Below, piece by piece: positions 2,918 to 23,927 of a stretch of 32,512 nt of DNA. The stretch comes from a virus. The stretch is from IMG/VR virus record IMGVR_UViG_3300012930_000010, positions 1 through 32,512 of that record; one strand, written 5' to 3'. Below the pieces are notes generated by a model that saw only the letters and a list, made by a program, of their open reading frames with translations, ran no database searches and was not told the origin of the DNA. The translations under genes were made by a program, and so were the position numbers. Within the stretch, counting starts at the first letter, position 1, and every line of letters starts with the position of its first letter.

Positions 2918-3490
2918 TTAGACCCCCACCTTGGAATCAGCGCTGGATATGGGCGGGGCTGTGGAAATACCGGGGCTAGGTGCGCTTGTTGGAATGCGCG
3001 ATTCCAGCCCCAGAGTGTCTGTTGGACTAAGACTCCACAGTTTTCGCATGCCGCGCACCGCGAGCGGCCGATCGAGCCGCTGGACGTCGCGCAGGATCCA
3101 TGCCCAGCGGCCGCCATCGTAATTGCCGAATTGTTTTTCCAGTTCCCAGCCATGTTTCGGCTGAAACCACTCTTTGAGTTGTTTCGCTTTGTACTCCACG
3201 AGCGGCGCCGGGAGGCAGGCGACTAACTGACAGACGCACACCACCGCGCCGCGGGGCAACGGGGTTTGTACTTGCAAACCCCGTTCTGAAAAAGTCAGCG
3301 GCGGAAACTCGAATCCCTTACTCCCCAAAATGAACGTGACGCGAGACAGCTCCGTGGGATCCGGCTGGCGCAGCGCCGCATGAATCGCCAGCAGCCCGCG
3401 GTAGCTGGTGTACCAGTCGCGCGTCTCCACTTCTTTCCAGCCGTAGGCAATCAGCGAAGCGTACGGCTCGTGCAGCGTCAGCGCCTTCAT
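2918..3490 (-). CDS. ASCH-domain protein, 190 aa
   Basis: MKALTLHEPYASLIAYGWKEVETRDWYTSYRGLLAIHAA...GAVVCVCQLVAC is the typical ASCH N-terminal pattern. ATGA overlap with the upstream gene. It contains hairpin copy A. Confidence 0.7.
   Translation of the reverse strand: MKALTLHEPYASLIAYGWKEVETRDWYTSYRGLLAIHAALRQPDPTELSRVTFILGSKGFEFPPLTFSERGLQVQTPLPRGAVVCVCQLVACLPAPLVEYKAKQLKEWFQPKHGWELEKQFGNYDGGRWAWILRDVQRLDRPLAVRGMRKLWSLSPTDTLGLESRIPTSAPSPGISTAPPISSADSKVGV
3258..3293 (+). repeat. TACTTR-loop hairpin element, copy A (AACGGGGTTTG-TACTTG-CAAACCCCGTT ctg AAAAA)
   Basis: Perfect 11-bp stem. Near-identical over about 33 nt to copy B. Lies inside the ASCH ORF, antisense to it. Confidence 0.8.
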
Positions 3491-7646: not shown

Positions 7647-7705
7647 GAAAAAGGCTGCTACAGGATGGGCACGGTCAACTGATCTTGAGAAAAATATATG
7701 TTGGA

Positions 7706-9178: not shown

Positions 9179-9180
9179 AG

Positions 9181-9228: not shown

Positions 9229-9283
9229 GCGAAAACCGGAAAAGCCGGCGAGAGAGCGTATCCGTGTGGCGGAAACGAGGACG

Positions 9284-9313
9284 AAATTACAAGCAAGGCA
9301 GAAACGCTGTCAA
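9284..9313 (-). promoter_or_regulatory. Candidate sigma70-like promoter for the helicase gene: TTGACA (9313..9308), 18-nt spacer, TAATTT (9289..9284)
   Basis: Read on the minus strand about 100 nt upstream of the helicase ATG. Confidence 0.4.
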
Positions 9314-9353
9314 GAACAATCGTGCAACGGGTGGTGTCGTTCTGGAAACACCG

Positions 9354-9506
9354 CTATATGTCGTGGCTGCGTCGCCGAGCCTGCACAAGATGCTCGCGCT
9401 CAAGCCGCTCCAAACGGCGCGAGGCGATAAAAGATTCAAGCAGAAGAATCAGCGTCAGCGAGTTGAGGAAAAATTGTATCGGATGATCGTTGATCCATTG
9501 TCCCAC
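9354..9506 (-). CDS. Possible small membrane protein, 50 aa (GQWINDHPIQFFLNSLTLILLLESFIASRRLERLEREH...)
   Basis: GTG at 9506 with GAGGT 6 nt upstream; GC3 only about 60%. Confidence 0.3.
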   Translation of the reverse strand: MGQWINDHPIQFFLNSLTLILLLESFIASRRLERLEREHLVQARRRSHDI

Positions 9507-9522
9507 TTTCTACCTCGCAGTT

Positions 9523-10935: not shown

Positions 10936-11179
10936 TGTGCTGTTCTTTCTTCGAGTGTTGCGAACCGTCTGTGTCTATACCACCACTGGGAGTCCGTGTA
11001 AACACGTACATTCCGTGAGTCGTCCGTAATTTGCACGTGCGGAGCGGGAACGACATCCGGCACGGACAACTGTTTGCCCTTTCTCCTCTCTCAAGCGATG
11101 GTGAGCGCAGGCGGCAGTTGTTCAGCCGGTAGGGACCGCCTGTAAACCATCTCAAGTTTGCGAACCACTCTGCCGGCGA

Positions 11180-11213
11180 TTTTTTGTTATGGCGGGCTGC
11201 AAGTACAGCCCGC
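11180..11213 (-). repeat. TACTTR-loop hairpin element, copy E (minus orientation: GCGGGCTG-TACTTG-CAGCCCGC cataac AAAAAA)
   Basis: 8-bp stem in the divergent intergenic region 10936..11229. The stem is nearly identical to copy H. Confidence 0.75.
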
Positions 11214-11229
11214 ACCTGGCAACCGATGA

Positions 11230-12264
11230 ATGAAGCTCACACGCATTCCGCATCTCGAAGGCGATCCGGGAGTTCAGCAGACTATCCGGCAGATGTGCCG
11301 GCTGATCGCCAAGGGCAAACAGGATCCGCAAGTTCACGAACTCGCGGCGCAGATTCTCCGCTGCGCGCGAGTGGCGGCCTACGATTGGACCGGCGAAGCG
11401 GAAGCCATCTTTCATTGGTGGCACAAGAACATTCGCTTCACGCGCGACGTGGACGGCCACGAGACGCTGCACGCGCCGGCGGACATCTTGCGGCTGGGGA
11501 TCGGCGACTGCGACGACTTTACGGTGGGAATTTGCTCGCTGCTGAAAACCATCGGCGCGGATTGCCACATCGTGACGATCGCTGTGGATCCCGAGGGCGA
11601 GTTCTCGCACGTGTATCCGGAAGTGATTTTGCCCAGCGGCCGCTCGATCGCACTGGACGCGGCGCGGCAATCCGCGGCATTCGGGAAATCTCCGGAGCGT
11701 TGGACGCGCAAACGGATCTGGTCTGTGGATTCCGGGGAGTACGCTGACATGGGCCGCCTCGGCAGACTTTCTTCTTTGGGCGACGGCCGTCAAAGCATCG
11801 CACCAGGCCAAGGACCGCAGGGCGCCTGGCGCGCCAATGTCTATCCGCCATTCCGCGTCGCTGCTCGCGAAATGACTGGCAGCTACCTCAGCGCTTTTCC
11901 CGTCGCGCCCCCACACCAACAATTCAAGCGGCCGCCGATTGGCTTTGGAAATTACGGCGTGCCGGCCGCGCGTCGCGCACTCGCGGATTTCAGTCGCGGC
12001 GATCTGCGCCGAACGCTCGGCGACGTTGATTGGGGCGCCATCACGCAAGCGATCACCGCCGGCACCACCGGAGCGGCGAACATCATCACTGCGGAGCGCG
12101 CTTCGCCGTACAACTTAGTTCCCACCACGTCGATGGCGCAGGGTGCGCGTTCTCCAATCCTGCCTCTGACTCAGGTCGCCGCATCGCCATTCGGTTCGAT
12201 CAGCCCGACGATGATTCTGCTCGGGCTCGGCGCCGTCGCGTTGATCGCCGCGGAGAGGCGCTGA
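11230..12264 (+). CDS. Transglutaminase-like (papain-fold Cys protease superfamily) protein with a C-terminal TM anchor, 344 aa
   Basis: GIGDCDDFTVGICSLL (Cys), FSHVYPEV (His), ALD (Asp). DMGRLGRLSSLGDG motif. C-terminal ISPTMILLGLGAVALIAAERR. Confidence 0.75.
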   Translation: MKLTRIPHLEGDPGVQQTIRQMCRLIAKGKQDPQVHELAAQILRCARVAAYDWTGEAEAIFHWWHKNIRFTRDVDGHETLHAPADILRLGIGDCDDFTVGICSLLKTIGADCHIVTIAVDPEGEFSHVYPEVILPSGRSIALDAARQSAAFGKSPERWTRKRIWSVDSGEYADMGRLGRLSSLGDGRQSIAPGQGPQGAWRANVYPPFRVAAREMTGSYLSAFPVAPPHQQFKRPPIGFGNYGVPAARRALADFSRGDLRRTLGDVDWGAITQAITAGTTGAANIITAERASPYNLVPTTSMAQGARSPILPLTQVAASPFGSISPTMILLGLGAVALIAAERR

Positions 12265-12974
12265 TGCCGTACCTGGTCGCAGCTCGCAAGCCGTCGATGG
12301 GCCGCATGGGCATCGTCATGGCCAACGGCGCTGCCACTACTGCTCGATCGAACATGATTTTGTATAGTCGTCCACGTCCGCTGCCGGTGGGCGACGGATC
12401 CGTGGGACCGATCGTGACTGGTCCTTACACCTACACTCCCCCAACCGGGAGCTTGCCGCCGAATCCGCCATCGATTCCTTTGCCACTGCCAGGTCCCCTG
12501 CCCGTGTGGCGTCCTCCTCCCCCGGTGCTGGTGACTTCCGCTCCGGATCTGCCCACTTTCAACACCGGCAGTCCTGTTCCGGCCGGTTATCCCACCAGCC
12601 AAATTTTTGTCGATCCGAATGGCGGCTTCTGGCAGTACAGCGCTTCGCAAAATAAATGGATGAATGTTGGCACATCGTACAACACCGGTGCGACATCGAT
12701 TCCGCCGGCAGTGCCCACAGGATCCACACCGAGCGCGCCAACTTCTCTCACCACGCCGACAACGGCGCCGGCGCCAGTGAATGTCAGCGTAGCCGCGCCG
12801 AGCTCCTCGTATCAGGAAATTTTGGATTGGCTCCAGGAAGACACGCTTGCATCAACCATCGGCTTCACTTCGATTCCCAATTGGATCGTTGTGGCCGCTG
12901 CAGGCGCTTTGGCCTGGAAATTTTCGCAGCCGACTCCTCGCAGCCGAAATCCTCGGAAAAGGCGGAGGCGCTAG
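12264..12974 (+). CDS. Proline-rich tail-anchored membrane protein, 236 aa
   Basis: ATG overlaps the upstream TGA, with GGAGAGG upstream. MPYLVAARKPSMGRMG... C-terminal NWIVVAAAGALAWKF followed by a basic tail. Confidence 0.75.
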   Translation: MPYLVAARKPSMGRMGIVMANGAATTARSNMILYSRPRPLPVGDGSVGPIVTGPYTYTPPTGSLPPNPPSIPLPLPGPLPVWRPPPPVLVTSAPDLPTFNTGSPVPAGYPTSQIFVDPNGGFWQYSASQNKWMNVGTSYNTGATSIPPAVPTGSTPSAPTSLTTPTTAPAPVNVSVAAPSSSYQEILDWLQEDTLASTIGFTSIPNWIVVAAAGALAWKFSQPTPRSRNPRKRRRR

Positions 12975-12975
12975 T

Positions 12976-13006
12976 CGCCCGTACTTACGGGCGCCAGCAA
13001 AACAAA
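12976..13006 (+). repeat. TACTTR-loop hairpin element, copy F (CGCCCG-TACTTA-CGGGCG ccagc AAAACAAAA)
   Basis: Begins 2 nt after the TAG stop of the upstream gene. The A-rich tail runs into the next ATG. Confidence 0.7.
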
Positions 13007-13690
13007 ATGTACTTGATGGATTCCAGCGCGCCGGCAGTGAGCAACACGAAGTGGCGTCTTCGCGGCATGGGCCGCCTCGGACTCTCTCCGGTGCGTTTGC
13101 CGAATCTCGGCGCATCGAGCACTGCGCAAAGCTGGCGCATGCGCGGGCTTCGCGGACTGGGCCGTCTCGGCGACGCCGGCAATTGCGTCTACTACGGCGC
13201 CGATGGCGTCACCGTTGAGTCGATCGACACTAACACCGACGTGGTGGAGTGCGCGGGCAACGGCGGCGCCTGGAACGCTGTACCGATTTTGAATATGCCA
13301 GTGATTCCTGGCGTGCAAAATCCGAGTCCGGTTGCTGGCAGCGCTTCGAACGGCCGCATCACTACGGTGCCGGCCACAACTCCTTCGAATAATCCGCTCG
13401 ACTATAGATCACCGCAAGAAGCCATCGCGGCCAACTTGGATCCCAATGCAGTGATGGCGGCCTGGACGAAAGCGCTCGCGCGTTTTCCAAGTCCACAAGC
13501 GGCCATCTCCGCGGGCGTTCCTCCTGGTGTCGTGAATCAACTTTGGCAGCAGAGCCAGGTGAACGCCGCAAACACCGCCGCGGCTTCGAAAGGATCGCTT
13601 TTCGGGTCTGGAACTCTCGGTTACGTAGCGATGGGGGCCACCGCATTATTGCTTCTCTCCGCTCTGGCCGGCGGAAAGGGACGGCGCTAA
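13007..13690 (+). CDS. Tail-anchored membrane protein, 227 aa, motif-family member
   Basis: MYLMDSSAPAVSNTKWRLRGMGRLG...MRGLRGLGRLGD... C-terminal LGYVAMGATALLLLSALAGGKGRR. An alternative ATG lies at 13016. Confidence 0.75.
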   Translation: MYLMDSSAPAVSNTKWRLRGMGRLGLSPVRLPNLGASSTAQSWRMRGLRGLGRLGDAGNCVYYGADGVTVESIDTNTDVVECAGNGGAWNAVPILNMPVIPGVQNPSPVAGSASNGRITTVPATTPSNNPLDYRSPQEAIAANLDPNAVMAAWTKALARFPSPQAAISAGVPPGVVNQLWQQSQVNAANTAAASKGSLFGSGTLGYVAMGATALLLLSALAGGKGRR

Positions 13691-14017
13691 ATGTACGTCA
13701 CCGATAGCGGATGCCCCACCGGCTACTTTCCCATCAACACAAAATGGGGAGGGACTTCTACGCTGAGCGGAATTTTGCCGGGTGGCGGCCTGCGCGCGCT
13801 GGGTTATTTCCGGCCAAACTTCGCGATGGCGCGCGGCATGTATCCAGGCGGCGGGCATTCCTGGAATTCGATGGGCCAACTGGAAGTCGATCCGACGATT
13901 CTGGGTTTGGGAATCGGCGCTCTGGCGCTCGGCGTGTTTCTGTTGGGAAGAAAACATCCGAAGAGGTCGCGCCGCCGCGGCCGTGGGCGGCTACGCAGAG
14001 CACTTGCGGAGAGTTGA
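13691..14017 (+). CDS. Small tail-anchored membrane protein, 108 aa, motif-family member
   Basis: ATG directly after the TAA. MYVTDSGCPTGYFPINTKWGG...GLRALG...SMGQLE. TM ILGLGIGALALGVFLLG followed by an Arg-rich tail. Confidence 0.7.
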   Translation: MYVTDSGCPTGYFPINTKWGGTSTLSGILPGGGLRALGYFRPNFAMARGMYPGGGHSWNSMGQLEVDPTILGLGIGALALGVFLLGRKHPKRSRRRGRGRLRRALAES

Positions 14018-14039
14018 GAAGCTAATGAATCGAGAACTT

Positions 14040-14153
14040 CTATTTCTTGGCAGTCGAGGAGTTTCGAAGCCATCGCTCAATCTGCATCCCTGCATAGATT
14101 ATGGATGGTACCAGAACAAAAATTATCAGCACCGCCCACATGCGCACTGTCAT
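14040..14153 (-). CDS. Possible antisense micro-gene: 37-aa hydrophobic peptide MTVRMWAVLIIFVLVPSIIYAGMQIERWLRNSSTAKK
   Basis: ATG at 14153 preceded by AGGTAAGGA. It fills a 165-bp lower-GC gap in the plus-strand operon. The competing plus-strand ORF 14025..14180 has lower GC3. Confidence 0.3.
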   Translation of the reverse strand: MTVRMWAVLIIFVLVPSIIYAGMQIERWLRNSSTAKK

Positions 14154-14182
14154 GTCCTTACCTCTCTGGGGGAAATCTAGTC

Positions 14183-14899
14183 GTGTATCTACTCCCCAAT
14201 TCGGCTGCTGTCAATAACCGCAAGTGGAATCTCGGGCGGATGGGCTGCAACTGCTCTTCGCGCGGCATTGGCGTGCCGCCACAGAAGCGTATGGGCCAAC
14301 TCGGCGATACTCCGGGCGTTCCCGCGGGGACTGTTCTCGCCTACACCGCGAGCTGGAAAGACTCTCCGCTTCAAATCAACACTCCCGATGCGGTGCAAGC
14401 CACGATCCAGGCGAACCTGGCGCAGCAATACGGCATCGTCATCGACAATCAGGTCCACTCGCAGAGCGACTATCTACATTTCAGCGGTCCGCAGAGCATG
14501 ACCTTGCAGGTGCACACCACGAGCGACTACGGCGCTCCTGGCGACATTCAATCGCTCATCGATGGCGCGATCTACGCCGCTACAAATGCCCACGTAGCGC
14601 AAGGCATGCCTTCCTCCACGATTCGCATCGTGCAAGCGGCCGCGCCTGGTCAAGTATCTCTGACTGCGCAATTGCCGGCCAGCACCAACGCCGCATTTAT
14701 GGCCGCCCAAGCCGGCTACGATGACGCGGTGGCACGTGGCGACATGGCCAGTGCCGCTCAGTTTGCCGCGCAGATCCAAAACATTACAGGCACCAACCCG
14801 TCCGGTGCGGGCGCCGGCGTCATGGCGTGGCTCTCGAACAATTGGGTATGGCTTGCTGCTGGCGGCGTCGGACTGGTCGTCGTGAAGGAGCTGCTGTGA
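14183..14899 (+). CDS. Tail-anchored membrane protein, 238 aa, motif-family member
   Basis: GTG at 14183 with GGGGGA upstream. (M)YLLPNSAAVNNRKWNLGRMG...KRMGQLGD has an N-terminus homologous to 13007. C-terminal WVWLAAGGVGLVVVKELL. Confidence 0.7.
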   Translation: MYLLPNSAAVNNRKWNLGRMGCNCSSRGIGVPPQKRMGQLGDTPGVPAGTVLAYTASWKDSPLQINTPDAVQATIQANLAQQYGIVIDNQVHSQSDYLHFSGPQSMTLQVHTTSDYGAPGDIQSLIDGAIYAATNAHVAQGMPSSTIRIVQAAAPGQVSLTAQLPASTNAAFMAAQAGYDDAVARGDMASAAQFAAQIQNITGTNPSGAGAGVMAWLSNNWVWLAAGGVGLVVVKELL

Positions 14900-15510
14900 A
14901 GAAAGCCTTGCTCACTTCCCTGCTCTTCTCGCTGCTGTCGCCGCTGCCAAGTCTTTGTCAACGTTCGCCCGTAAGTACGGGCGCGGCGCAGCACTGCGGT
15001 GTGGAACGCTGGCCGGTGAAGACACTCACGGATCCCGCTGGTGAAACGGTTGCCTCCGCTTCCCCCACCCTGGGAACAGTCGCGGAGCTCGTGATGGTGG
15101 GCGCCCCTTCGCGTAAGCAATTGCTTGCCGCCACGAGCTCGCGATTCGCGCACGAGAAAATCGTGTACCGCGTCTCCGTCGCCGTCATCGGCGACAAAGA
15201 GGAAGCGGACTCGGATTTCCATATCGTGCTCGCCGCGCCGGGCAACCACTCAACGATGCTGATCGCAGAAATTCCCAGCGGCTCCTGCACCGGCCCGCAG
15301 CGCGCAAACTTTTTCAACGATCTTCGAGCGCAGTTCGCGAAGGACTTCGGGAAGCCTGCGGCCGGGAAGCTGCGGAGACTGGCGCAACCTGTAGCCGCGT
15401 GCGTAACGGGAGTGGGCTTCTTCGATTTTCTGCACGGGCAGGATGGCGTCGCGCCGAACGGTTTCGAGCTGCATCCGGTGCTCTCGATCGTGAAAGGACC
15501 GTGCCGGTGA
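14896..15510 (+). CDS. Secreted protein with a signal peptide, 204 aa
   Basis: GTG at 14896 in a GTGA overlap with GAAGGAG upstream. (M)KKALLTSLLFSLLSPLPSLC...GVERWPVKTLTD... Confidence 0.7.
   Translation: MKKALLTSLLFSLLSPLPSLCQRSPVSTGAAQHCGVERWPVKTLTDPAGETVASASPTLGTVAELVMVGAPSRKQLLAATSSRFAHEKIVYRVSVAVIGDKEEADSDFHIVLAAPGNHSTMLIAEIPSGSCTGPQRANFFNDLRAQFAKDFGKPAAGKLRRLAQPVAACVTGVGFFDFLHGQDGVAPNGFELHPVLSIVKGPCR
14966..14983 (-). repeat. TACTTR-loop hairpin element, copy G (exact reverse complement of the 18-nt core of copy F)
   Basis: cgcccgtaagtacgggcg, inside the coding sequence of 14896..15510, with no A-run. Confidence 0.65.
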
Positions 15511-16418
15511 GCGCGCTAGCCACAATGCGACTGCAAAACCCCGCGCGCGGCAAACGTAAGGCTCCCGTTTCCGGGGCGCGCGGGAAGAGAAATGTTGGCG
15601 AGCTGCTCATCTTCGGCAACCCGCGCCGGAAAGGCGCGTCTGGAAATAAGTCGAAAGGTTTCGGCAATCACAAGCCCGGATGCCCGTGCAAATTCTGCGA
15701 TCGAGCGGCGAAGCTGCAAAGCGGGGAGCTGAAACCGCCGAAGCTGCCAAACCGCAAGAAGAAAAACTCCAAGAAGCTCGACGCCCAGCGTGGAGCTCGA
15801 GAGCGCTCCAGCCGGATCCGTACGGCGCGCCTCAATCCGAAAAAGAAACAGAAGAGATCCACGCGCGGCCGAAGACGTGCGGACCGGCGCAACAATCCCA
15901 GCGAAACGAAACAAGCGGTGCGGCTCTTCCAGGGCTTCCACGGTCACGATCCCAAAGAGATCGCGGAGAAGCACGTCTCCGCCGCGGTGCGCCTCGATTA
16001 CACCGCCCTGGGCGACCTGAAGTACCTGGTGGTGGAAACGCCGCTCGGCAAAGAAGCGACGTTCACCTTCGAGGATGACGGCGTGAAGCTGGCGAGCTCG
16101 CCGGATGGCAAACAGCTCTACTGCATCGGCGGCGACCAGAACATTTTGCCGCTGCTCGATGAACGTTCGCGAGAAAAAGATTTCATCGATCTGGGCGACG
16201 GCCTCGAGGTCGCGTATCTGGCGCGCAAAGTCCACGGAGAATTCCGCCCCGTCGAGTACTTCCACGAATTCGGGGAACTGAACGGCGCGCACCCGCGGCT
16301 GATGTTCGACAAGCTGCGCAAAAACATTTTCTTTATCGGCGGCGACTACTTCATCGACGTGAACATGCGCGCGCCAGGCACGCCGCTCGGCAAAGTTTCG
16401 CCGGGCATCGAAAACTGA
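15507..16418 (+). CDS. Protein with a highly basic N-terminal ~130 aa (repeated basic-NP motifs) and a conserved-looking C-terminal domain, 303 aa
   Basis: GTG at 15507 (GTGA overlap) or ATG at 15525. LQNPARGKRK, FGNPRRKG, RLNPKKKQKR, RRNNPSETKQAVRLFQGFHG...YFHEFGE...FFIGGDYFID... Confidence 0.7.
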   Translation: MSALATMRLQNPARGKRKAPVSGARGKRNVGELLIFGNPRRKGASGNKSKGFGNHKPGCPCKFCDRAAKLQSGELKPPKLPNRKKKNSKKLDAQRGARERSSRIRTARLNPKKKQKRSTRGRRRADRRNNPSETKQAVRLFQGFHGHDPKEIAEKHVSAAVRLDYTALGDLKYLVVETPLGKEATFTFEDDGVKLASSPDGKQLYCIGGDQNILPLLDERSREKDFIDLGDGLEVAYLARKVHGEFRPVEYFHEFGELNGAHPRLMFDKLRKNIFFIGGDYFIDVNMRAPGTPLGKVSPGIEN

Positions 16419-16434
16419 GAGAGGGAGAAAACTT

Positions 16435-16581
16435 ATGGCTAAATTGAAAACAGAATCGATCTCACCGACCACCCCCGCAGCGGCGCCGAAGGACTCTGCT
16501 CCTCAAACGCATTCGAAAGAGTGTGGCGACGTGGGAATCACCGGAGAGCACGGCGACTTGGGAACGAACGCCGCGAAATAA
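16435..16581 (+). CDS. Small hypothetical protein, 48 aa (not in the ORF track)
   Basis: ATG at 16435 with GAGAGGGAGA 5 nt upstream. MAKLKTESISPTTPAAAPKDSAPQTHSKECGDVGITGEHGDLGTNAAK. The stop lies in the stem-loop CGCGAAA-TAAA-TTTCGCG. Confidence 0.5.
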   Translation: MAKLKTESISPTTPAAAPKDSAPQTHSKECGDVGITGEHGDLGTNAAK

Positions 16582-16602
16582 ATTTCGCGATCGACACCAT
16601 GC

Positions 16603-17487
16603 ATGTACGGCACACCACAATTCGCGCAGCGAGGGCCAGGCACCTATCTAACGGGTGCGCCGCTCTCGCGTTCACCGCGTCGGCGGTTGCGGCGCTTCTC
16701 CGGATTCGGCTCGCTGACTCCGGACCAGGCCACGGAACAAATCTTTCCGGCGGCGCAGGTGAGGAGCGGAGCGGGACACAACCAATCGATACGCGACCAA
16801 ATCCTGCAATCCGCGAATGCCGGCCAGATCCTCAATGCCCAGGGCTCGCCAGCGTACATGCCGGGGACGGGCCAATGCTCCGGCGCGAGTCTACTGAAGC
16901 CGGCGATCACCGGAACGGTGGGGAGTCTGGCACTGCACTTTGCTCCGCAAGCCTTTGCGGCCGGGCCGATCGTAGGCGGCATCGTCGTGGGCATTGCGGC
17001 AATCAGCGAACTGTTTACCGTGATCTTCGGCCATCACGCCGCAGCTATCAAGAAAGAGCAGAGCGTCCTTTGCGCGGCGACGCCGGCGGCCAATCAATCG
17101 CTTCAGCTGATCGACCAGGCGGTGCAGCAGGGGCAGGCCACTCCGCAGGACGCCATCACGGCGCTGGGCAACGTGGTGTCCGGCTTTCAGCAAGCCGTCG
17201 CGTCGATCATTCATGGCGCCAACCCGATGTCCAGCGGCGAATGCAACGCGGCGTGCGTGATTCTCTCCGAACTGCGCGCCATCGTGCTGCTGAAGCAATC
17301 GCAGTATCAGGATCTCGCCGCGCAGCAGTCCACCAACCCGGTAGGCGCAGCGCTCGCGCCAGTTACAGCCGCGTTCGCGCCGGTCAGCCAGGCGGTGCAA
17401 TCGGTGCAAGCGGCCGCCGCGTCCGCGGGCTTGCCCGCGTGGCTGGTGCCGGCTGCGGGATTTTTTCTTTTGTGGAAGTTGCTGTAG
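16603..17487 (+). CDS. Membrane protein, 294 aa, motif-family member
   Basis: MYGTPQFAQRG...RRLRRFSGFGSL... Internal TM AAGPIVGGIVVGIAAISELFTVIF and C-terminal LPAWLVPAAGFFLLWKLL. The overlapping track ORF 16521..17495 is an Arg-rich shadow frame. Confidence 0.75.
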   Translation: MYGTPQFAQRGPGTYLTGAPLSRSPRRRLRRFSGFGSLTPDQATEQIFPAAQVRSGAGHNQSIRDQILQSANAGQILNAQGSPAYMPGTGQCSGASLLKPAITGTVGSLALHFAPQAFAAGPIVGGIVVGIAAISELFTVIFGHHAAAIKKEQSVLCAATPAANQSLQLIDQAVQQGQATPQDAITALGNVVSGFQQAVASIIHGANPMSSGECNAACVILSELRAIVLLKQSQYQDLAAQQSTNPVGAALAPVTAAFAPVSQAVQSVQAAAASAGLPAWLVPAAGFFLLWKLL

Positions 17488-17517
17488 GGCCCTGAATCAA
17501 AAATCCTGTCCACGGGT

Positions 17518-17551
17518 GCGGGTTGTACTTGCGGCCCGCCCTGAAAAAAAA
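17518..17551 (+). repeat. TACTTR-loop hairpin element, copy H (GCGGGTTG-TACTTG-CGGCCCGC cctg AAAAAAAA)
   Basis: 8-bp stem including two T-G (G-U) pairs that work only in plus-sense RNA. The A-run runs into the GGAGA Shine-Dalgarno of the next gene. Confidence 0.75.
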
Positions 17552-17565
17552 GGAGAAGCAAAAAT

Positions 17566-18297
17566 ATGAGCACAACGCAACTCACGATGACGCCGGCGGA
17601 CCTCTTCAAGTACCAGAATGATTTGGTGCGCACCGGGAAACATTTGCCGCTGGGCCGCATGCGCACCATCGCGGTGGGGCCGTGCGACACCTACAAGCCT
17701 CCGGCGGACGATCCCATCATCAGCGGCTACGGATCGCAGCCGCAGCGCAACGCCCGCGGCCGCATGCTGGATTTCAGCGGTCAATGGTTGCCGATCGCCC
17801 AGGCCGCGGACAAGTCCATGATCCTGGTCACTGCGCCGCTGATTCGCAAAGACGGCTACGTGGGATTGCCAGACCTGGTGGATCCGCTGTGGCGCGCCGC
17901 CGACTACACCGAAGAAGAAGCCGCGAATCCCGATTGCGATGCGGACTGCCGCAAGCAGTGGGACATCACGCGGACAGGCGAAAAAGTTCAGCACGTGCAC
18001 ATTCAACTGCGCGCCGGCAAAGACACGCCGCGCATGATTCCGCAGCGCCTGGAAGACCGCACCAACGATAGGCTGCAGGGCACAAACTTTCTCGTCTTTC
18101 AACCCGTGCTGCGCATCACCTACCAACCGGAAGAACTGAAAGCCGGCGACCAGCACAGCTTCAAGCCCGCGGAGTGGAAAATCGAATTTCGTCCGGACAT
18201 GGGAGGAGTGCACGCGGCATTCCTGGTGGATCCCACAAACGGCGAGTGTCACTTTTTTGGCGGCGTCCCGATTTTCGGAGGCGACACCAAGGGGTAG
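17566..18297 (+). CDS. Hypothetical structural-arm protein, 243 aa
   Basis: ATG with AAGGAGA upstream; clean ORF; no recognisable motif. Confidence 0.75.
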   Translation: MSTTQLTMTPADLFKYQNDLVRTGKHLPLGRMRTIAVGPCDTYKPPADDPIISGYGSQPQRNARGRMLDFSGQWLPIAQAADKSMILVTAPLIRKDGYVGLPDLVDPLWRAADYTEEEAANPDCDADCRKQWDITRTGEKVQHVHIQLRAGKDTPRMIPQRLEDRTNDRLQGTNFLVFQPVLRITYQPEELKAGDQHSFKPAEWKIEFRPDMGGVHAAFLVDPTNGECHFFGGVPIFGGDTKG

Positions 18298-18333
18298 TGG
18301 GGTTTGTACTTGCAAACCCCGCGCTGAAAAAAA
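18297..18333 (+). repeat. TACTTR-loop hairpin element, copy B (GTGGGGTTTG-TACTTG-CAAACCCCGC gctg AAAAAAA)
   Basis: 10-bp stem with one G-U pair. Starts at the last base of the upstream TAG stop. Confidence 0.8.
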
Positions 18334-18401
18334 GAGTTTCGGCAAGAAGCACGGTGACGGTTCGCCGCGTGTCCTCTGCCGATTAAAAGGGGAAGAGCCA
18401 C

Positions 18402-19247
18402 ATGCCAAAAGTAAAGCTTGTGAATCCATCCCGGACGCGCCGCCGGCGCGCGTCCCGCAACGCGCGAAAGCGCCGCATGCCCGCAGGGCTTAAACGCTAC
18501 TGGGCAAGCGTGCGTCGAGCCGCGGCGCAAAAAAATGCTGGCGGAGGACACATGAAAACGAAAAGAAGGCGGCGTAGCCGAGCCCGTGCCTCGCGCCGGC
18601 GCAAGAGCTATCGTCGTCGTAGTAACCCGATGTATGCCTTGGCGGCTCCCAGGCGGCGGCATCACCGTCGCCGCGGCAGCAGCCATCGGCGGCATCGCCG
18701 GCGCAATCCTGGACTGCAATCCTTCACCAGCGGCGGCATGCTGCAAACCGTTGGCGGAGCGGCGATCGGCTTCTTCGGAAGCAATGCGCTGCCCGCGCTG
18801 ATTCCGCAGCTCGCGCAGTACAACACCGGCGTTACCGGCTATGCCATTCAAGCCGTCTCGGGCTTGGCTCTGAGCTGGGGATTGAAGCGCTTCCTCGGCA
18901 AAGGCTGGGGCACCGGCGCCCTCATCGGCACCGGCCTCTCGATCCTGCTGCGCATCGTGAAGGACCATGCGATGAGCACCGGCTCGGTCGCTTCCGCGGC
19001 GATGAGCGGAGACCTGGCGTACTACGTGGACGACCGCTTCCCGTTCGCGCAGGGCGCTGGCGGGCCATACGGCAACTTCCCCGGCAACGCCTCGCTTGCC
19101 AATCCGCCCTTCCCGGCCACGTCGGCCGCGGCGGTGCGCGCTGGCGCGGCGGCCGCTTCGGCGGCTTTGCCGGCTGCGGCAATGCATGGCATCGCCACGG
19201 GCCGCTGGGGAGTCAATTCCGCCGGCGACATGAGCCGTTGGACGTAG
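18402..19247 (+). CDS. Protamine-like Arg-rich N-terminus (~110 aa, basic-NP motifs) fused to a Gly-rich membrane domain, 281 aa
   Basis: AAGGGGAAGAG upstream. LVNPSRTRRRRASRNARKRR...RRRSNPMY...HRRHRRRNPGL, then GGAAIGFFGSNALPALIP and GWGTGALIGTGLSILLRIV. Confidence 0.75.
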   Translation: MPKVKLVNPSRTRRRRASRNARKRRMPAGLKRYWASVRRAAAQKNAGGGHMKTKRRRRSRARASRRRKSYRRRSNPMYALAAPRRRHHRRRGSSHRRHRRRNPGLQSFTSGGMLQTVGGAAIGFFGSNALPALIPQLAQYNTGVTGYAIQAVSGLALSWGLKRFLGKGWGTGALIGTGLSILLRIVKDHAMSTGSVASAAMSGDLAYYVDDRFPFAQGAGGPYGNFPGNASLANPPFPATSAAAVRAGAAAASAALPAAAMHGIATGRWGVNSAGDMSRWT

Positions 19248-19313
19248 CTTCTCTCTTTCTTTCCGGTGCGGTGCGAGATGGGCGCCGCACCGGAGAGTGA
19301 TCTTCTCGGGTTT

Positions 19314-19347
19314 CAGGGTTTGTACTTACAAACCATGAGCCGAAAAA
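19314..19347 (+). repeat. TACTTR-loop hairpin element, copy C (CAGGGTTTG-TACTTA-CAAACCATG agccg AAAAA)
   Basis: 9-position stem with one mismatch. Shares the 5' flank CGGGTTTCAGGGTTTGTACTTACAAACC with copy D. Confidence 0.7.
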
Positions 19348-19419
19348 GACTTGGTTTGCAGGCACTGGCAGCCGCGATCCGGCGCCGGAACTTAGATCAC
19401 AGAAAGCGAGAATTCGAAA

Positions 19420-20187
19420 ATGAGAAACTTCGAAGCCGCCGGACGCGCAGGCAAGAGTCATCGCCACGTTCGGCGCATGGAGAAAATCAGTTCGTACGAG
19501 CTAGGCAGGCCCCACGCGCCGCGGTTGCGGAATCCCAACACGGGCATTCCGGAATTCGTGGTGTGGAGTCTGTTCGATATTTACGCCGTCGCTGCCGGCG
19601 GCACGATGGGCAAGCTGTCGCTCTACACCGTGCAGCAGGGCGCCAACTACAACTTCAACGGCGTGACCGCGTTCGCGAAAGGCGAGCAGCACGTTTCGCT
19701 GGTGCAGCCTGGCCAGCTCGAATCGAGCTACACGTTCATCGTGCGCGCGCTCTCCGTCTACGTGCAGGGTCAGCAGGGCACCGCGCATCCCGCGGTGCAT
19801 CGTGAAGATCTCGAAAACCTGCTGGGCTCGCTGGTGAAGTTCCGCATCAACAAAAAAGAATACTTCATCGGCATTCCGGCATGGCTGCCCGGAGGCGGCG
19901 GCCAGGTGACGCTGGGCTTCGGCTCGCTCACCGTGCCCACCGCCAGCTTCACCAACACCAACGGCTGGCAGGAGACCGATAACGTCTACGCGCTTCCCGG
20001 CGGGCAGTACATCAATCCGCAGGAAACGTTTGACTGCATCATCGATCCATCCACCAACGCGCTCGTTGGCGGCGGCACCGGCGCTCCCACCGCGCTGGCC
20101 GCGGCCGGCTTCCCCACTGGCGTACCCGCCGCGGGACTCTGCGCGTGGTTCCGCCAGGATGGGCAACTGATTCGCGTCGCGCAGTAG
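19420..20187 (+). CDS. Beta-rich protein, candidate major capsid protein, 255 aa (alternative start 19477)
   Basis: ...YTFIVRALSVYVQG...LVKFRINKKEYFIGIPAWLPGGGG...ETFDCIIDP...LCAWFRQDGQLIRVAQ. Alternating beta pattern, followed by a hairpin. The functional call is inference only. Confidence 0.6.
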   Translation: MRNFEAAGRAGKSHRHVRRMEKISSYELGRPHAPRLRNPNTGIPEFVVWSLFDIYAVAAGGTMGKLSLYTVQQGANYNFNGVTAFAKGEQHVSLVQPGQLESSYTFIVRALSVYVQGQQGTAHPAVHREDLENLLGSLVKFRINKKEYFIGIPAWLPGGGGQVTLGFGSLTVPTASFTNTNGWQETDNVYALPGGQYINPQETFDCIIDPSTNALVGGGTGAPTALAAAGFPTGVPAAGLCAWFRQDGQLIRVAQ

Positions 20188-20232
20188 AGCTGGAACGTCG
20201 CGAGTTGAAGTCCTTTGGACAGGACACCTGCG

Positions 20233-20273
20233 AGGGTCCGGATTGAATGGGGATAGGGCAAGCCGGACCCTTT
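20233..20273 (+). terminator. Terminator/attenuator-like hairpin after the putative capsid gene (AGGGTCCGG ... CCGGACCCT, 21-nt loop, then TTT)
   Basis: 9-bp perfect GC-rich stem with a short T-tract. Confidence 0.35.
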
Positions 20274-20313
20274 GCAGACTCACTTCTTTAGAAACGAAAT
20301 TTTGGGGGATGCC

Positions 20314-20616
20314 ATGCAAGCAGGCAATCGCGTGATGGTTTATGACAGTCCGGGTTTTCCGGTGGATCACTATCTATACGCCACGGTGCTAACGCCATCC
20401 GATGCCGGCGCGCTGGTCATCGTCGATCATCCGGGGAATCTCGCGCATGGCGTGCAGCGCTTCGTGCCCGCCAACAAAATTCTCACCGCCGTCGACGTGA
20501 AGAAGAAAGCGGACGGTCTCCGGGCGGAGCTCGCCCAGCAGCGCGATGCGGACAAGCGCAAAACCTTGATGGACCACATCAAGGGCTTCGAGTTCATGGC
20601 CGAGCAGTTGGCGTAA
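20314..20616 (+). CDS. Small hypothetical protein, 100 aa
   Basis: ATG at 20314 with GGGGGA upstream. MQAGNRVMVYDSPGFPVDHYLYATVL..., with a helical C-terminus. Confidence 0.65.
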   Translation: MQAGNRVMVYDSPGFPVDHYLYATVLTPSDAGALVIVDHPGNLAHGVQRFVPANKILTAVDVKKKADGLRAELAQQRDADKRKTLMDHIKGFEFMAEQLA

Positions 20617-20649
20617 GCGTAGCGAAGAAAAAAACGAGGGAGAAATGTC

Positions 20650-21135
20650 ATGACTCAGACTTGTCAAGCTTGCCGGGGAAACGCGATCGTCGCCACGCCC
20701 TCGGGAGGCGTCATAAAGTGTCCTGTCTGCCAGGGCATAGGGCAAATTTCCGGCGACCTGACCGACCAGCTTTTCTGGTATTTGTTTTCGCCGGCGCAGC
20801 TCAGCGCCAACCAGCAAGGCGTTTTGAACACCATCACGGTGGACAACGACGCGGATTTCCGCATTCGCTGGCTGATCGTGAGTTCCACCGGGCTCTTCAG
20901 CGTGGAGATCAAGGATCTCTATGCCGGCGGCGCTCCCTGGATGCCCACGCCCGTCAACGGGGAAAACTTTGCCGGCACCGCGCAGTTGCCCTTCGTGCTG
21001 CCAAAGCCTTACCCGGTTTACAAAGGCTCGTCGCTGCAGGCGAAGTTCAACGACCGCAGTGGCGCGCCCAACACGATTCAGCTCTGCTTGGTGGGCTACA
21101 AGATCGACAAGCTGCCCTCCGGCCCGAGCAACTGA
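20650..21135 (+). CDS. DnaJ-type zinc finger (CxxCxG...CxxCxGxG) fused to a beta-sandwich domain, 161 aa
   Basis: GAGGGAGA upstream. TCQACRGNA...KCPVCQGIGQ, then DADFRIRWLIVSSTGLFSVEIKD...FAGTAQLPFVLPKPYPVYKGSSLQAKFNDRSGAPNTIQLCLVGYK. Confidence 0.75.
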   Translation: MTQTCQACRGNAIVATPSGGVIKCPVCQGIGQISGDLTDQLFWYLFSPAQLSANQQGVLNTITVDNDADFRIRWLIVSSTGLFSVEIKDLYAGGAPWMPTPVNGENFAGTAQLPFVLPKPYPVYKGSSLQAKFNDRSGAPNTIQLCLVGYKIDKLPSGPSN

Positions 21136-21214
21136 ACGACGTGGACCGGCCGAACGTTTGTGTAGGGCCGCATGAGTACGAAGCTGTCAGTACCTGCATC
21201 GGGAAAATCTTCGA

Positions 21215-21811
21215 ATGCAGGAATTGCTGGAACTGGACGCGGAAACAGCCGGCACGCCAGTTTCTAAAGTTTCAGGCGGGCAAGCGGCTGACCAGGAGAT
21301 CCACACGACGATGATTCCTGCACAGCCAACGCCGGCCGATCCCATCGCGCAGCTTCTCACCTACCGCAGTTTTTACGGCAGCGAAGATCATCTGCCACTC
21401 GAAGCGCTGCTCGATGAGATCGACGCCATCGTGCCCTATTGGTTTCCGCTTTACGATTCCGCTACTTCTCTGCCCTCCGGCTCGCTCGGCGCGCAGCAGA
21501 CTGACCGCGGCCAGGTGATTGCCCAGGAAGATTGCTGGATCTGGTCGCTGATCGCCAGCGCGAGCGTTGCCGGAAATAGTTTCGTGGTGCAGCTCTTTGA
21601 CACCGAGCGCGAAATAACTTTCATGGACGAAGACGTGTTCGTAGGCAACGCGGCCGGCACAGCGCTTCGCCAATTCTTTTTGAAGTCTCCGATCCATATT
21701 CCCATCGGCGGGCAAATCGAATCGCGTGTCATCAACCTGGCGGCTGTGGCCAACGCCATCCAGATTATCGGTTTCGGCGTGCGGCCGGATTCGCGAAAGA
21801 AGATCACCTAG
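21215..21811 (+). CDS. Beta-sandwich protein, paralogue of the C-terminal domain of 20650..21135, 198 aa (alternative start 21311)
   Basis: QEDCWIWSLIASASVAGNSFVVQLFDTERE...NAAGTALRQFFLKSPIHIPIGGQIESRVINLAAVANAIQIIGFGVR aligns position-for-position with the 20650 protein. Confidence 0.7.
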   Translation: MQELLELDAETAGTPVSKVSGGQAADQEIHTTMIPAQPTPADPIAQLLTYRSFYGSEDHLPLEALLDEIDAIVPYWFPLYDSATSLPSGSLGAQQTDRGQVIAQEDCWIWSLIASASVAGNSFVVQLFDTEREITFMDEDVFVGNAAGTALRQFFLKSPIHIPIGGQIESRVINLAAVANAIQIIGFGVRPDSRKKIT

Positions 21812-21828
21812 GGGAAAGGAAACGGGTT

Positions 21829-21861
21829 TCAGGGTTTGTACTTACAAACCCTGACATAAAA
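21829..21861 (+). repeat. TACTTR-loop hairpin element, copy D (TCAGGGTTTG-TACTTA-CAAACCCTGA cat AAAAA)
   Basis: Perfect 10-bp stem. The A-run abuts the ATG at 21862, with no Shine-Dalgarno. Confidence 0.8.
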
Positions 21862-22392
21862 ATGTCCACAATGTCACCCACAGTCTTCCAGGGCCGCCGC
21901 TTCGTGAAGAAGCCCAATAGCGCGATCCTCACGCCTTCCTGCGCCGTCACCGTGCCGCAGCTCCCGGTGCAGAACTTCATGCCGCCAGGCGGCAAGCCGT
22001 TTGAGTTTGCAGCCGGCGTGGCGCTGCCGGCGATCGGCGCGACGGTCACGGTGCTGAGCTTCACCGTGCCGCGCGGCCAAAACGGTTTCGTCCGGCGCAT
22101 CGCCAACGTGTTCGTGGGCGGCGGCTTCACGGATTTTTCCGGCTCGATCGTGTGGCAAATTCTGCTGGACCAGGTGAAGAACGTGGTCGCTCCGGGCTTT
22201 GACAATATCGTGGCATCACTCGGCGCGGTTTCGAATCCATCGAACATCGACGGGATCCACGTGATGGAGAATTCCACCGTCGCCCTGATCGTGAAAAACA
22301 TTTCGGTGGTCGTGAGCGGCCAACTGATTGGTGGCCGTCTCGGTGGTTCGTTCCACCCAGTTCCGCAGGAACCGCCGAACCTCGCGTTCTGA
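21862..22392 (+). CDS. Beta-rich structural-like protein, 176 aa
   Basis: ...TVTVLSFTVPRGQNGFVRRIANVFVGGGF...IVWQILLD...GIHVMENSTVALIVKNISVVVSGQLIGGRLGG. Looser resemblance to the two upstream paralogues. Confidence 0.7.
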   Translation: MSTMSPTVFQGRRFVKKPNSAILTPSCAVTVPQLPVQNFMPPGGKPFEFAAGVALPAIGATVTVLSFTVPRGQNGFVRRIANVFVGGGFTDFSGSIVWQILLDQVKNVVAPGFDNIVASLGAVSNPSNIDGIHVMENSTVALIVKNISVVVSGQLIGGRLGGSFHPVPQEPPNLAF

Positions 22393-22402
22393 TTTTGTAG
22401 AG

Positions 22403-22434
22403 GCCGGGGCTTCAGCCCGGCATGGGATAACAAA
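22403..22434 (+). repeat. Diverged hairpin (GCCGGG-gcttcag-CCCGGC, then atgggATAACAAAA) in the same post-stop, pre-ATG position as the TACTTR elements
   Basis: The 3' arm CAGCCCGGC and the ATAACAAAA tail resemble copy E, but the loop differs. Confidence 0.4.
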
Positions 22435-23913
22435 ATGGCAGACCGATTCAAAAGCGGTGACCCGGTAAAGGTGATGCTCTCGAAAAAGCACACTCTCGCG
22501 GCCGACGATGAGATGGTGGAGCACGCGGCAAAATTCGTGCGCTATCTCCCCGATGAATGGGCCGAAGTGGAGCTCGACTCGCATCACTCGATCGATGCCG
22601 GCCGCAAAGTGTTCACCCTCAGCGTGCCGATCTCGCAGCTCGTCGCCGCAGTGCTTCTGCTCTTCCTGTTCGTGGCGCCAGCCAACGCGCAGTTTCTCGG
22701 TTACACTTCGCCGCAAACCGTCAACGCAAAAGTATTCAGCGGACAAACCACCGCGGCGGTCACTCCGTCCAGCTTCGTAAACAATTGTGCCCCCACCAAC
22801 GGCGCGCCGTGCTCCATCCCTAACATCGGCCAGAGCATCCATTCGGTGACCTACAGCATTTCGAGCCCCTGCACCGTTGGTTTCTTTATGGACCTGCGCC
22901 TGGAGGCGTCCAACGACGGCACGAATTGGTTTTCGATTTCGCAAGACGGCACGGACCAAAACAGCGGTTCGGTGCAAGGTTCCAGCAGCGCTGGACTGAC
23001 TGCGATCGGCTCGTATGCCGGCTATCGCCTGAATCTCGTCTCGATCTCTTGCCTGAATGGCGGCACACCGTCGGTCACCGCGTTTTATTCCGGCACGTCG
23101 ACGTCGGCGCCCGCGCCTGCGGACCTTTTCTATCAAAGCAACCCGTACCGCAAGCTGATCCTGCAAAATCAGCCGACGACGAACGCCGTCACGCAGCCGG
23201 CCGTCACCATCGGCGCGCCCAACGGCAACACTGCCGGCGCGCTTTATATTTCGTGCTTCATCGCCGCGAACGGCTCCACCACTTCGTGCCCCGCTGCCAT
23301 GACCGTCACCGTGACGGGCTTCATTGCGTTCGGCGCATCGATCGGCGGCGGCGGTGGGGGTAACATCACGTCGGGATTCAATGTCTACGGCATCAATCCC
23401 ACCGTCGCGCCCGTCACGCAGATTTTCAGTGTGCCGGCGATCAGCATGACCTTTAGTTTCGGCGGCACGGGCACCGCCGGCGTGAGCTGGTCGATCTACT
23501 ACCTCTCGAACTCCACTCCGAGTTCCAATTTCGTCGCCGATCCATGCGCCACTTCCGGCAGCGTGAAGAAAAACGTCTCGATAAATATCACCACCGGCGC
23601 CACCACGTTGCTCGTGCTGGGCGTCGTCCAGCAAACGACTTACGTTTGCGAAATAACGCTGGACATGACTGCCACGGCTGCGACCGCCGATACAATTTTC
23701 TTCGAGCAAGGGTCTGGCGCGACCTGCACCGCACCAGCAGTTCTCTCGGGAACGTTCAGCAGTGGTTTACTTTCTGCTGGCGCCACCGTCATTCCGATTG
23801 GGAGCGGCACTTCCACAATCTTAAGTGGAACGACGGGCTTCAGTCTCTGCGCGGTGAGTGCAGTGGGAACGACGCCGAATATCGCGCTGCATTTCGTCTA
23901 CGTGCAGCAGTGA
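22435..23913 (+). CDS. Large beta-rich Ser/Thr/Gly-rich protein with an internal signal-anchor, 492 aa (spike or fibre-like)
   Basis: N-terminal ~65-aa soluble domain, then LVAAVLLLFLFVAPANA-QF, then ~400 aa of beta-rich, low-charge sequence. Confidence 0.75.
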   Translation: MADRFKSGDPVKVMLSKKHTLAADDEMVEHAAKFVRYLPDEWAEVELDSHHSIDAGRKVFTLSVPISQLVAAVLLLFLFVAPANAQFLGYTSPQTVNAKVFSGQTTAAVTPSSFVNNCAPTNGAPCSIPNIGQSIHSVTYSISSPCTVGFFMDLRLEASNDGTNWFSISQDGTDQNSGSVQGSSSAGLTAIGSYAGYRLNLVSISCLNGGTPSVTAFYSGTSTSAPAPADLFYQSNPYRKLILQNQPTTNAVTQPAVTIGAPNGNTAGALYISCFIAANGSTTSCPAAMTVTVTGFIAFGASIGGGGGGNITSGFNVYGINPTVAPVTQIFSVPAISMTFSFGGTGTAGVSWSIYYLSNSTPSSNFVADPCATSGSVKKNVSINITTGATTLLVLGVVQQTTYVCEITLDMTATAATADTIFFEQGSGATCTAPAVLSGTFSSGLLSAGATVIPIGSGTSTILSGTTGFSLCAVSAVGTTPNIALHFVYVQQ

Positions 23914-23927
23914 CCGGGGGGAGACCC

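Follow-up and report, generated by a model that had tools for sequence, protein, structure and literature searches.

IMG/VR virus record IMGVR_UViG_3300012930_000010 was analysed over its positions 1 to 32,512 (the window), in which short stem-loops sharing the loop TACTTR had been put forward, in an earlier note made from the sequence alone, as candidate viral regulatory elements. The window begins and ends with an exact 123-nt direct repeat (1-123 = 32390-32512), and both a DUF5131 gene and the synteny with a close relative, contig L004, continue across its ends; it thus represents a complete circular or terminally redundant genome of approximately 32,389 bp. Minus-strand genes, which run from 31762 through the ends to 10935, include those for two DNA methyltransferases, an ASCH-like protein, a DnaB-like helicase and the DUF5131 protein. 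Among the products of the plus-strand genes (11230-31674), only transglutaminase-like domain and lysozyme-like (SLT lysozyme) proteins match PHROGs or Pfam. These scans covered nearly all open reading frames (ORFs) and gave, in addition, weak RHH similarity; an RNA-binding regulator, an RNA polymerase, an integrase and a transposase were sought in them and not found, and no terminase, portal, HK97-type capsid or tail gene was recognisable. No tRNA genes were found in the window.

The motif TACTTR occurs 19 times over both strands of the window, as compared to 5.6 +/- 2.5 times in dinucleotide shuffles (none of 100 shuffles reached 19), and eight of the 19 occurrences form the loop of an uninterrupted hairpin with a stem of 6-11 bp. 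These include the longest perfect hairpins of the window. The predicted RNA folding energies of the eight copies, which we designate A to H, range from -13.8 to -21.4 kcal/mol, and the minimum-energy RNA fold presents an ACUU tetraloop closed by a U-G or U-A pair. A covariance model was built, as the earlier note had suggested, from a 16-sequence alignment (A3) of the eight window copies and eight copies from related sequences. On the window it retrieves exactly the eight copies, at 35-49 bits, and the next match scores 18 bits and corresponds to one of these copies read on its reverse strand. In alignment A3, 90% of cells are paired and both sides have changed in seven of the ten pairs, while slid registers, used as a control, are only 29-49% paired. 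The stem-loop family that had been described, with stems that co-vary around a fixed loop, is thus real; the range given for it (11180-22434) omits copy A, at 3258, and a hairpin at 22403, which had been counted as a diverged member, lies outside it (7.8 bits, E = 4). A hairpin with an ACTTA loop at 23631 is likewise not a member according to the model.

The sequence has no counterpart in the collections that we consulted, in agreement with the earlier statement that no described element has this loop. The whole window gave no match at Rfam gathering thresholds, and with E values up to 10 the window and one host tandem array gave only chance-level matches of the miRNA type. A literature search for the element sequence returned no paper with a matching sequence, and the supplements to PMC6006769 hold no Acidobacteria repeat sequences. 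There was also no match to GenBank phages in a near-identity search with window positions 11000-23000, nor to GenBank phages and PLSDB plasmids with a 45-nt unit.

By contrast with these blanks stands the scan of bacterial chromosomes, for which we employed the 18-mer GGTTTGTACTTRCAAACC, representing one stem subtype, against one genome per prokaryotic species. At least 120 genome stretches matched, and approximately 109 of the 120 listed matches are Acidobacteriota assemblies (Ca. Acidoferrum, Ca. Acidiferrum, Ca. Sulfotelmatobacter and Terriglobales); a single metagenome-assembled genome (MAG), CAVVWI01, carries the element at 16 or more loci. The consensus of 131 host copies, cCGGGTT-TCAGGGTTTG-TACTTR-CAAACCCTGA-gcTaAAAa, shares its foot and its tail with the copies of the window. 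Its foot reads C-G-G-G-T-T (G-G-G in 85-93% of copies, T-T in about 80%), and that of the window copies CGGGT or CAGGT. The repeat unit measures 38-41 nt and consists, from its 5' end, of the foot (C)GGGT(T), a perfectly paired stem (6-11 bp) that is free in sequence and encloses the TACTTR loop, and a tail in which C-N-T/A is followed by A-rich sequence. Some of the host matches form direct tandem arrays with a period of 38-39 nt, and the 38-nt period defines the length of the unit.

Kinship between host and window copies extends to the stems themselves. The 8-kb host pieces also hold copies with GCGGGCTG, CGCCCG and CGCCTG stems around the same loop, the first two being the stem types of copies E and F/G, and all stem types of the window except the variant peculiar to copy H were found in the host. 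Copy D is identical to a copy in an Acidobacteriota MAG (locus L107) at 42 of 42 positions and matches the 38-nt tandem unit of host locus L014; copy C agrees with a host copy in L064 at 39 of 42 positions, and with copy D at 35 of 42. The stem type of copy E occurs in host locus L031 as well as in other viral contigs. Host copies lie in both orientations next to ordinary or housekeeping genes, such as alaS, and 102 of 112 are intergenic, in the sense of lying outside well-scoring ORFs in crude gene calls.

Comparison with related viruses shows that the copies come and go as discrete units. A syntenic IMG/VR contig (L005/L006), whose proteins are 40-88% identical over window positions 7700-24500, has no TACTTR hairpin, and the junctions that hold copies E, F, H, B and D are 31-55 nt longer in the window than in L005, the difference being made up of a short GGGT-type foot, the hairpin, some further bases and the A-run. 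Where the window has copies F and D, L005 has overlapping stop and start codons (TGATG, with the window approximately 32 nt longer, and GTGA, respectively); approximately 41 nt are missing from L005 at the site orthologous to that of copy E, and copy H is a clean 38-nt extra segment with respect to both L005 and L128. Because the boundaries of these indels include the A-run, it belongs to the repeat unit and not to the start of the following gene. An A-run had been noticed earlier behind all copies except G, and none follows copy G.

The most recent event concerns copy C. Looking up exact matches to the capsid-like protein encoded downstream of it led to three assemblies of other samples (L146, L147/L149 and L148/L150), which over 6-21 kb share 99.5-99.98% identity with the window. 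Within their stretches, L146, L147 and L148 carry every window copy except C, which is absent from all three: they lack bases 19308-19346 (GGGTTTCAGGGTTTGTACTTACAAACCATGAGCCGAAAA, 39 nt), and the flanks ...TCTTCTC and A(A/G)ACTTGG... are joined directly, with no target-site duplication. The site is also empty in the outgroups L005, L127 and L129, and copy C is therefore an insertion in the lineage of the window; judging from these alignments, it is an arrival of the last ~0.05% of sequence divergence.

Further afield, no copies were found in L127 and L128 or in the distant family members L153, L154 and L155, and L152 has a single decayed copy. L129 and L130 carry copies at positions other than those of the window (in L130, in junction 22392/22435), and element positions in L134 also differ from the window. 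Other IMG/VR contigs have one to four copies with the same stem types, and several of them two to four copies of different types; element-bearing viral contigs include unrelated ones (L002, L131, L135-L138, L140) as well as distantly related ones (L133/L134 and L001/L132/L139). The copy in L135 shows a compensatory C-G closing pair beneath an unchanged loop.

Taken together, these data indicate that the eight hairpins are probably a REP-like (REP, repetitive extragenic palindromic), non-autonomous mobile palindromic repeat of soil Acidobacteriota hosts of the class Terriglobia (genome types Ca. Acidoferrum, Acidiferrum and Sulfotelmatobacter), and not of the virus. Since the repeat fills chromosomes of soil Acidobacteria and still inserts into the virus, the hairpins point to the probable host rather than to virus-specific control.

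The positions of the copies are given in Table 1. Five of them (F, H, B, C and D) occupy stop-to-start junctions, all in sense orientation to the plus-strand genes, so that the placement between a stop codon and the next start reported earlier holds for these; it does not hold for E, which is antisense in a divergent intergenic region, nor for A and G, which lie within ORFs. In total, six of the eight copies are intergenic, and three (A, E and G) lie antisense to the genes around them. The core of the copies within ORFs contains no stop codon in the frames used. The orientation of the copies showed no pattern with respect to a possible replication origin or GC skew.

Table 1. Positions of the eight TACTTR copies and of other features of the window (CM, covariance model; SD, Shine-Dalgarno sequence)
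Feature	Unit or segment	Hairpin	Strand	Stem or sequence	CM score (bits)	Context
Copy A	3253..3293	3258-3285	+	11 bp, GGGGTTTG stem type	48.7	antisense within ASCH-like ORF 2918-3490(-), encoding residues 66-80 in frame
Copy E	11181..11221	11213-11192	-	8 bp, GCGGGCTG stem type	44.5	divergent intergenic region, 9 nt upstream of ATG 11230 of the first plus-strand gene, antisense to it
Copy F	12966..13006	12976-12993	+	6 bp, CGCCCG stem type	41.9	between stop 12974 and ATG 13007; A-rich tail abuts ATG
Copy G	14953..14993	14983-14966	-	6 bp, CGCCCG stem type	35.2	antisense inside ORF 14896-15510(+), behind signal-peptide-like N-terminus; no A-run after hairpin
Copy H	17510..17550	17518-17539	+	8 bp, GCGGGTTG/CGGCCCGC stem including two T-G pairs	42.1	between stop 17487 and SD/ATG 17566
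Copy B	18291..18331	18297-18322	+	10 bp including one T-G pair, GGGGTTTG stem type	47.0	begins at stop codon of gene 17566-18297
Copy C	19307..19347	19317-19334	+	6 bp (longer with one mismatch), GGTTTG stem type	46.0	upstream of capsid-like gene 19420-20187
Copy D	21823..21863	21829-21854	+	10 bp, TCAGGGTTTG stem, host consensus type	49.1	between stop 21811 and ATG 21862; tail runs into ATG
Family-conserved hairpin		19262-19297	+	CCGGTGCGGTG-CGAGATGGG-CGCCGCACCGG, GC-rich		between gene 18402-19247 and capsid-like gene, just upstream of copy C
TTCA-loop hairpin		22403-22421	+	GCCGGGGC-TTCA-GCCCGGC, one bulged G		
Conserved non-coding segment	18352-18378		+	GGTGACGGTTCGCCGCGTGTCCTCTG		junction after copy B
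Sigma-70-like promoter	10975-11012		-	TTTACA-17 nt-TATAGA		upstream of minus-strand gene 9523-10935

The two copies within genes are tolerated by their reading frames. The ORF that holds copy A has a PHROG/ASCH match, and in L004 the module of approximately 50 nt that contains copy A lies inverted at the same site of the ASCH-like gene (window 3225-3345 versus L004 3385-3500), with conserved flanks and a frame that is open in both genomes; the difference in orientation may reflect one inversion or two independent insertions. The ORF that holds copy G has coding potential and begins with a GTG that overlaps the stop codon before it (GTGA). The 18-nt core of copy F recurs unchanged, but in opposite orientation, in copy G, at a distance of 2 kb; the two form a long-range inverted repeat, an arrangement that is the same in the near-identical genome L146 and that could in principle mediate inversion of the intervening segment. 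In the region of copy E, a good sigma-70-like promoter was read by eye upstream of minus-strand gene 9523-10935 (Table 1); copy E lies upstream of this promoter and hence outside the 9523-10935 transcript. The junction that follows copy B includes a segment that is non-coding yet conserved in L005 and L128.

Five sense copies exactly between late genes, together with stable hairpins, a fixed loop and co-varying stems, are what one would expect of virus-specific cis-regulatory RNA hairpins of the late operon, kept because the virus needs them as a regulator-binding site, as an antiterminator or terminator, or as a hairpin promoter. Roles of this kind were proposed in the earlier note, which named related genomes that lack the elements as evidence that would speak against it, and such genomes exist: the copies are absent from the syntenic L005, L127 and L128 and from the family members L153-L155, and three genomes at least 99.5% identical to the window do without copy C. 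Identical units are, moreover, abundant in bacterial chromosomes beside housekeeping genes, three copies, two of them within ORFs, run against the direction of the local genes, and no promoter- or terminator-like consensus was found at the copies. We thus consider a virus-specific regulatory role most improbable.

As concerns individual signals, the copies are not canonical intrinsic terminators, as had been noted before: the tail is A-rich, the T-run of the other strand precedes the stem, and a terminator scan calls none of the eight. A sigma-70 promoter was rejected as well, since hexamer spacing within the unit is wrong and none was called at the copies. T-G pairs, of which copy H has two and copy B one, had been described as valid only as G-U in plus-sense RNA. 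Wobble pairs of this kind are tolerated also in single-stranded DNA hairpins. Among mismatches in host copies outside the consensus position, G-T outnumber A-C by 21 to 14, and a strand-specific excess at these positions is unconvincing as a sign of RNA-level selection; the argument for plus-sense RNA is therefore weak.

When the family genomes were examined for conserved cis-elements, at orthologous positions and with compensatory changes, the TACTTR copies proved not to be conserved in this way, unlike a different, GC-rich hairpin at ~19262-19297. It is kept in eight members of the virus family, where stems differ with compensatory changes in 11 of 14 pairs around a loop in which ATGG is invariant, and a pyrimidine-rich run precedes it. 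Judged by this alignment, it makes a stronger candidate than the TACTTR repeats for a real cis-regulatory structure of the virus.

Differences between relatives at the same junctions could also be read as traces of homologous or illegitimate recombination, be it gene conversion with host DNA or cassette shuffling of the PeSL type, with the repeats as scars or hot spots. Junction B indeed differs from relative to relative, with a copy of GGGGTTTG type in the window, a copy of GCGGGCTG type elsewhere in the junction in L129, unrelated sequence in L128, and no copy in L005 or L128; copy A has opposite orientations in the window and in L004, and GGTTTG lies just downstream in the target of copy C. 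Against this, the indels are precise single units of 38-41 nt without co-transferred host flanks, copies are scattered over numerous unrelated positions, in host loci as well as in unrelated viruses, and no flanking homology is available at the sites of H, F, D and E. Recombination is thus an unlikely means of spread.

Density raises a further question, that of the direction of transfer. With eight copies in 32.4 kb, the window has approximately 0.25 copies per kb, while unselected host copies number ~25 in 0.94 Mb (~0.03 per kb), a difference of approximately nine-fold. Such a density, the several viral contigs with two to four copies of different stem types, and the fact that most viral proteins have no known function would fit a virus family that is itself the source, either by encoding the mobilising activity or by seeding host genomes during infection or lysogeny. 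The window has, however, no HUH/Y1 motif and no Pfam transposase, the ORFs scanned gave no integrase, the element is missing from most members of the virus family, and host copies are found among housekeeping genes across many genera. We therefore regard a viral source as very unlikely.

For a host repeat of this kind, we propose that the element would move as a folded single-stranded DNA hairpin, and that the agent would be a host HUH tyrosine enzyme (Y1; RAYT, REP-associated tyrosine transposase, or IS200-like) that reads the loop and the foot and needs a stem that is unbroken but free in sequence. Such an enzyme would explain why the loop is constant while the stems co-vary. The group-3 TnpAREP enzymes of S. 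maltophilia and Marinomonas likewise require specific loop bases and a perfect stem (PMC8266576). Replicating virus DNA would serve as a target, and selection would retain only those copies that fall at gene junctions or in tolerant in-frame positions.

Several observations weigh against a mobile host repeat, the first of which is that a cognate transposase for the TACTTR element was not found. The window has no recognisable motif of the HUH/Y1 type. A scan for HUH/Y motifs over 0.94 Mb of host DNA yielded two RAYT genes, and five more were reached through homologues, but all seven (in L095, L115, L141, L142, with two genes, L144 and L145) are flanked by different GC-rich hairpins with TTCA or TTTA loops, and no TACTTR element lies within 450 nt of them, in what is a small sample of RAYT paralogues. 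The element has the foot (C)GGGT(T) in place of the canonical GT[AG]G (GTAG) tag of REPs. Its insertion sites share no visible target motif. The constancy of the loop in the host set was largely imposed by the search pattern, and in unselected host copies approximately 7 of ~20 loops are variant. Finally, the higher density in the virus and the shared orientation of all five late intergenic copies could mean selection for function rather than pure parasitism.

Segments between inverted pairs of elements at host loci L015, L020 and L063, considered as possible REPtrons, hold only ordinary genes and no transposase. The TTCA/TTTA-loop family numbers 60 copies with stems of at least 7 bp in the 0.94 Mb of host DNA; it was seen at host loci L095, L115 and L141-L145 and flanks the RAYT (PF01797) genes. 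The window hairpin at 22403, with its TTCA loop (Table 1), resembles it. At host loci L013, L020, L030, L035, L036 and L055, the TACTTR unit lies inside the loop of a larger palindrome, CCCCGGACT ... AGTCTGGGG, which looks like the RAYT-flanking hairpin type and would make these nested or composite repeats.

Function at the RNA level need not compete with mobility, and a portable module of host origin could have been co-opted, that is, kept for a useful transcribed hairpin and A-tail; this would add to the mobile-repeat reading and not replace it. The hairpin would protect the mRNA of the upstream cistron from 3' exonucleases, and the tail would provide an unstructured ribosome landing site without an SD. 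Some E. coli REPs have been shown to protect upstream mRNA from 3' exonucleases. A preprint presents REPs as regulators in the 3' untranslated region in E. coli (bioRxiv 10.64898/2026.03.23.713779). In addition to the sense orientation and the density already mentioned, the tails of copies D and F replace the ancestral overlapping stop and start and directly precede an ATG that lacks an SD. In the host, 34 of 102 copies have a sense-strand gene start no more than 120 nt downstream, as compared to 19 of 102 on the antisense side, with nine starts within 15 nt, but these starts rest on crude gene calls and the orientation biases in window and host are weak (p about 0.05-0.06, unadjusted sign tests). 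Copies A, E and G are antisense, and close relatives have no elements at the same junctions. We thus hold co-option to be a tentative possibility, in which the transcribed hairpins may, judging from their placement, secondarily protect upstream mRNA or act as an SD-less leader for the gene that follows; such a role would not be essential, since close relatives get by with no copy.

The mobile-repeat reading can be placed among known systems. Like REPs and REPINs with their RAYTs (PMC2817692, PMC3116915, PMC8266576, PMC6006769), the element is a palindromic unit of 20-40 nt with a short unpaired 5' foot, present in many chromosomal copies that are mainly extragenic, lie in both orientations and in clusters, and fall into several stem classes per genome; it also inserts occasionally in frame within genes and creates no target duplication upon insertion. 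In-frame insertions are known for REPs, including some inside tnpAREP genes (PMC6006769). Differences concern the hexaloop TACTTR and the A-rich 3' tail within the unit, the arrays, which are direct with a 38-nt period instead of alternating BIMEs or inverted REPIN pairs, and the presence of apparently active copies in virus genomes; the seven RAYT genes examined lie next to another hairpin family and form no REPtron with the element. The element is thus a short palindrome of high chromosomal copy number, mostly extragenic and with insertion polymorphism free of target duplication, but it has no 5' GTAG/GT[AG]G tag and does not flank any of the RAYT (Y1_Tnp, PF01797) genes examined. With no cognate RAYT found and no such tag, it is filed here as REP-like in behaviour and not as a proven member of the REP/RAYT system.

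CGTC-tagged palindromic repeats (Di Nocera et al., 2013; PMC3733652) are similar in that they are REP-like, with a perfect stem of 8-9 bp, a loop of 4-5 nt of a few fixed types, short unpaired tails and no associated transposase gene; they differ in their loop and stem rules, and that family is not reported from viruses. Neither the consensus nor the window copies have a terminal tag of that type (CGTC or TGTC/CCTC), A-T pairs at the first two positions of the stem, or a CCA tail. Rickettsia palindromic elements, reportedly described by Ogata et al. in 2000, are said to measure 100-150 bp and to lie typically within genes. They resemble copies A and G in being inserted in frame in protein genes without destroying them, but only two of the eight copies here are in ORFs, and the unit is only ~40 nt long. 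PeSL cassettes of T4-type phages (reportedly Arbiol et al., 2010) are said to be phage-specific and to contain an early promoter of the phage; the MPME of mycobacteriophages (reportedly Sampson et al., 2009), which are ultra-small mobile elements, are said to be ~440 bp long with inverted ends. Both are, as here, short repeated intergenic phage modules whose presence differs between close relatives, but neither is known to be shared with the host chromosome. Intrinsic terminators and N4-type hairpin promoters are also GC-rich stem-loops in intergenic DNA; here, neither strand has a T-run behind the stem, relatives do without the elements, and the ORFs scanned include no gene for a giant virion RNA polymerase.

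The virus that received these repeats is itself unusual. The product of gene 19420-20187, a capsid-like protein of 255 residues, is its best-conserved protein, with about 119 homologous clusters, many of them on contigs of 30-34 kb. The AlphaFold model of this protein is all-beta (pLDDT 72.5) and weakly matches jelly-roll capsid proteins (SPV1, E = 5e-3; PBCV-1, iridovirus and CRESS-virus capsid proteins). PDB sequence searches with three viral proteins gave no match. As far as the model can be relied upon, the virus may belong to an undescribed non-tailed virus family of Acidobacteria.

What had appeared to be a new viral regulatory RNA thus becomes a host interspersed repeat caught in the act of moving into a virus genome, and we deem it likely that this repeat, defined by its loop, is a REP-like element of Terriglobia not described before, with insertion into the virus still under way. 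Repeats of the REP type are usually described as vertically inherited residents of chromosomes, and we know of nothing reported on such elements in the phylum Acidobacteriota. The fact that virus genomes of at least 99.5% identity differ by an insertion is direct evidence that the element is still active. By sequence alone, the repeat also links an uncultivated soil virus family with genomes of ~30-34 kb and no recognisable tailed-phage genes to Acidobacteriota (Terriglobia) hosts, and the fixed loop, free stem and GGGT foot offer a concrete substrate with which to seek the mobilising enzyme. A word of caution also follows, in that co-varying hairpin families in a virus genome are by themselves no evidence of viral regulation, and host chromosomes should be checked first. 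A bolder proposal, which we advance as a conjecture that is rather doubtful at present, is that the TACTTR loop and GGGT foot define a previously undescribed REP-like class that is active, preferentially colonises replicating virus genomes, and is retained in sense orientation between late genes as an RNA-stabilising or translation-leader cassette. If this were true, viruses could carry such repeats between Acidobacteria, and the repeat would provide a sequence-only means of assigning uncultivated soil viruses to Terriglobia hosts.

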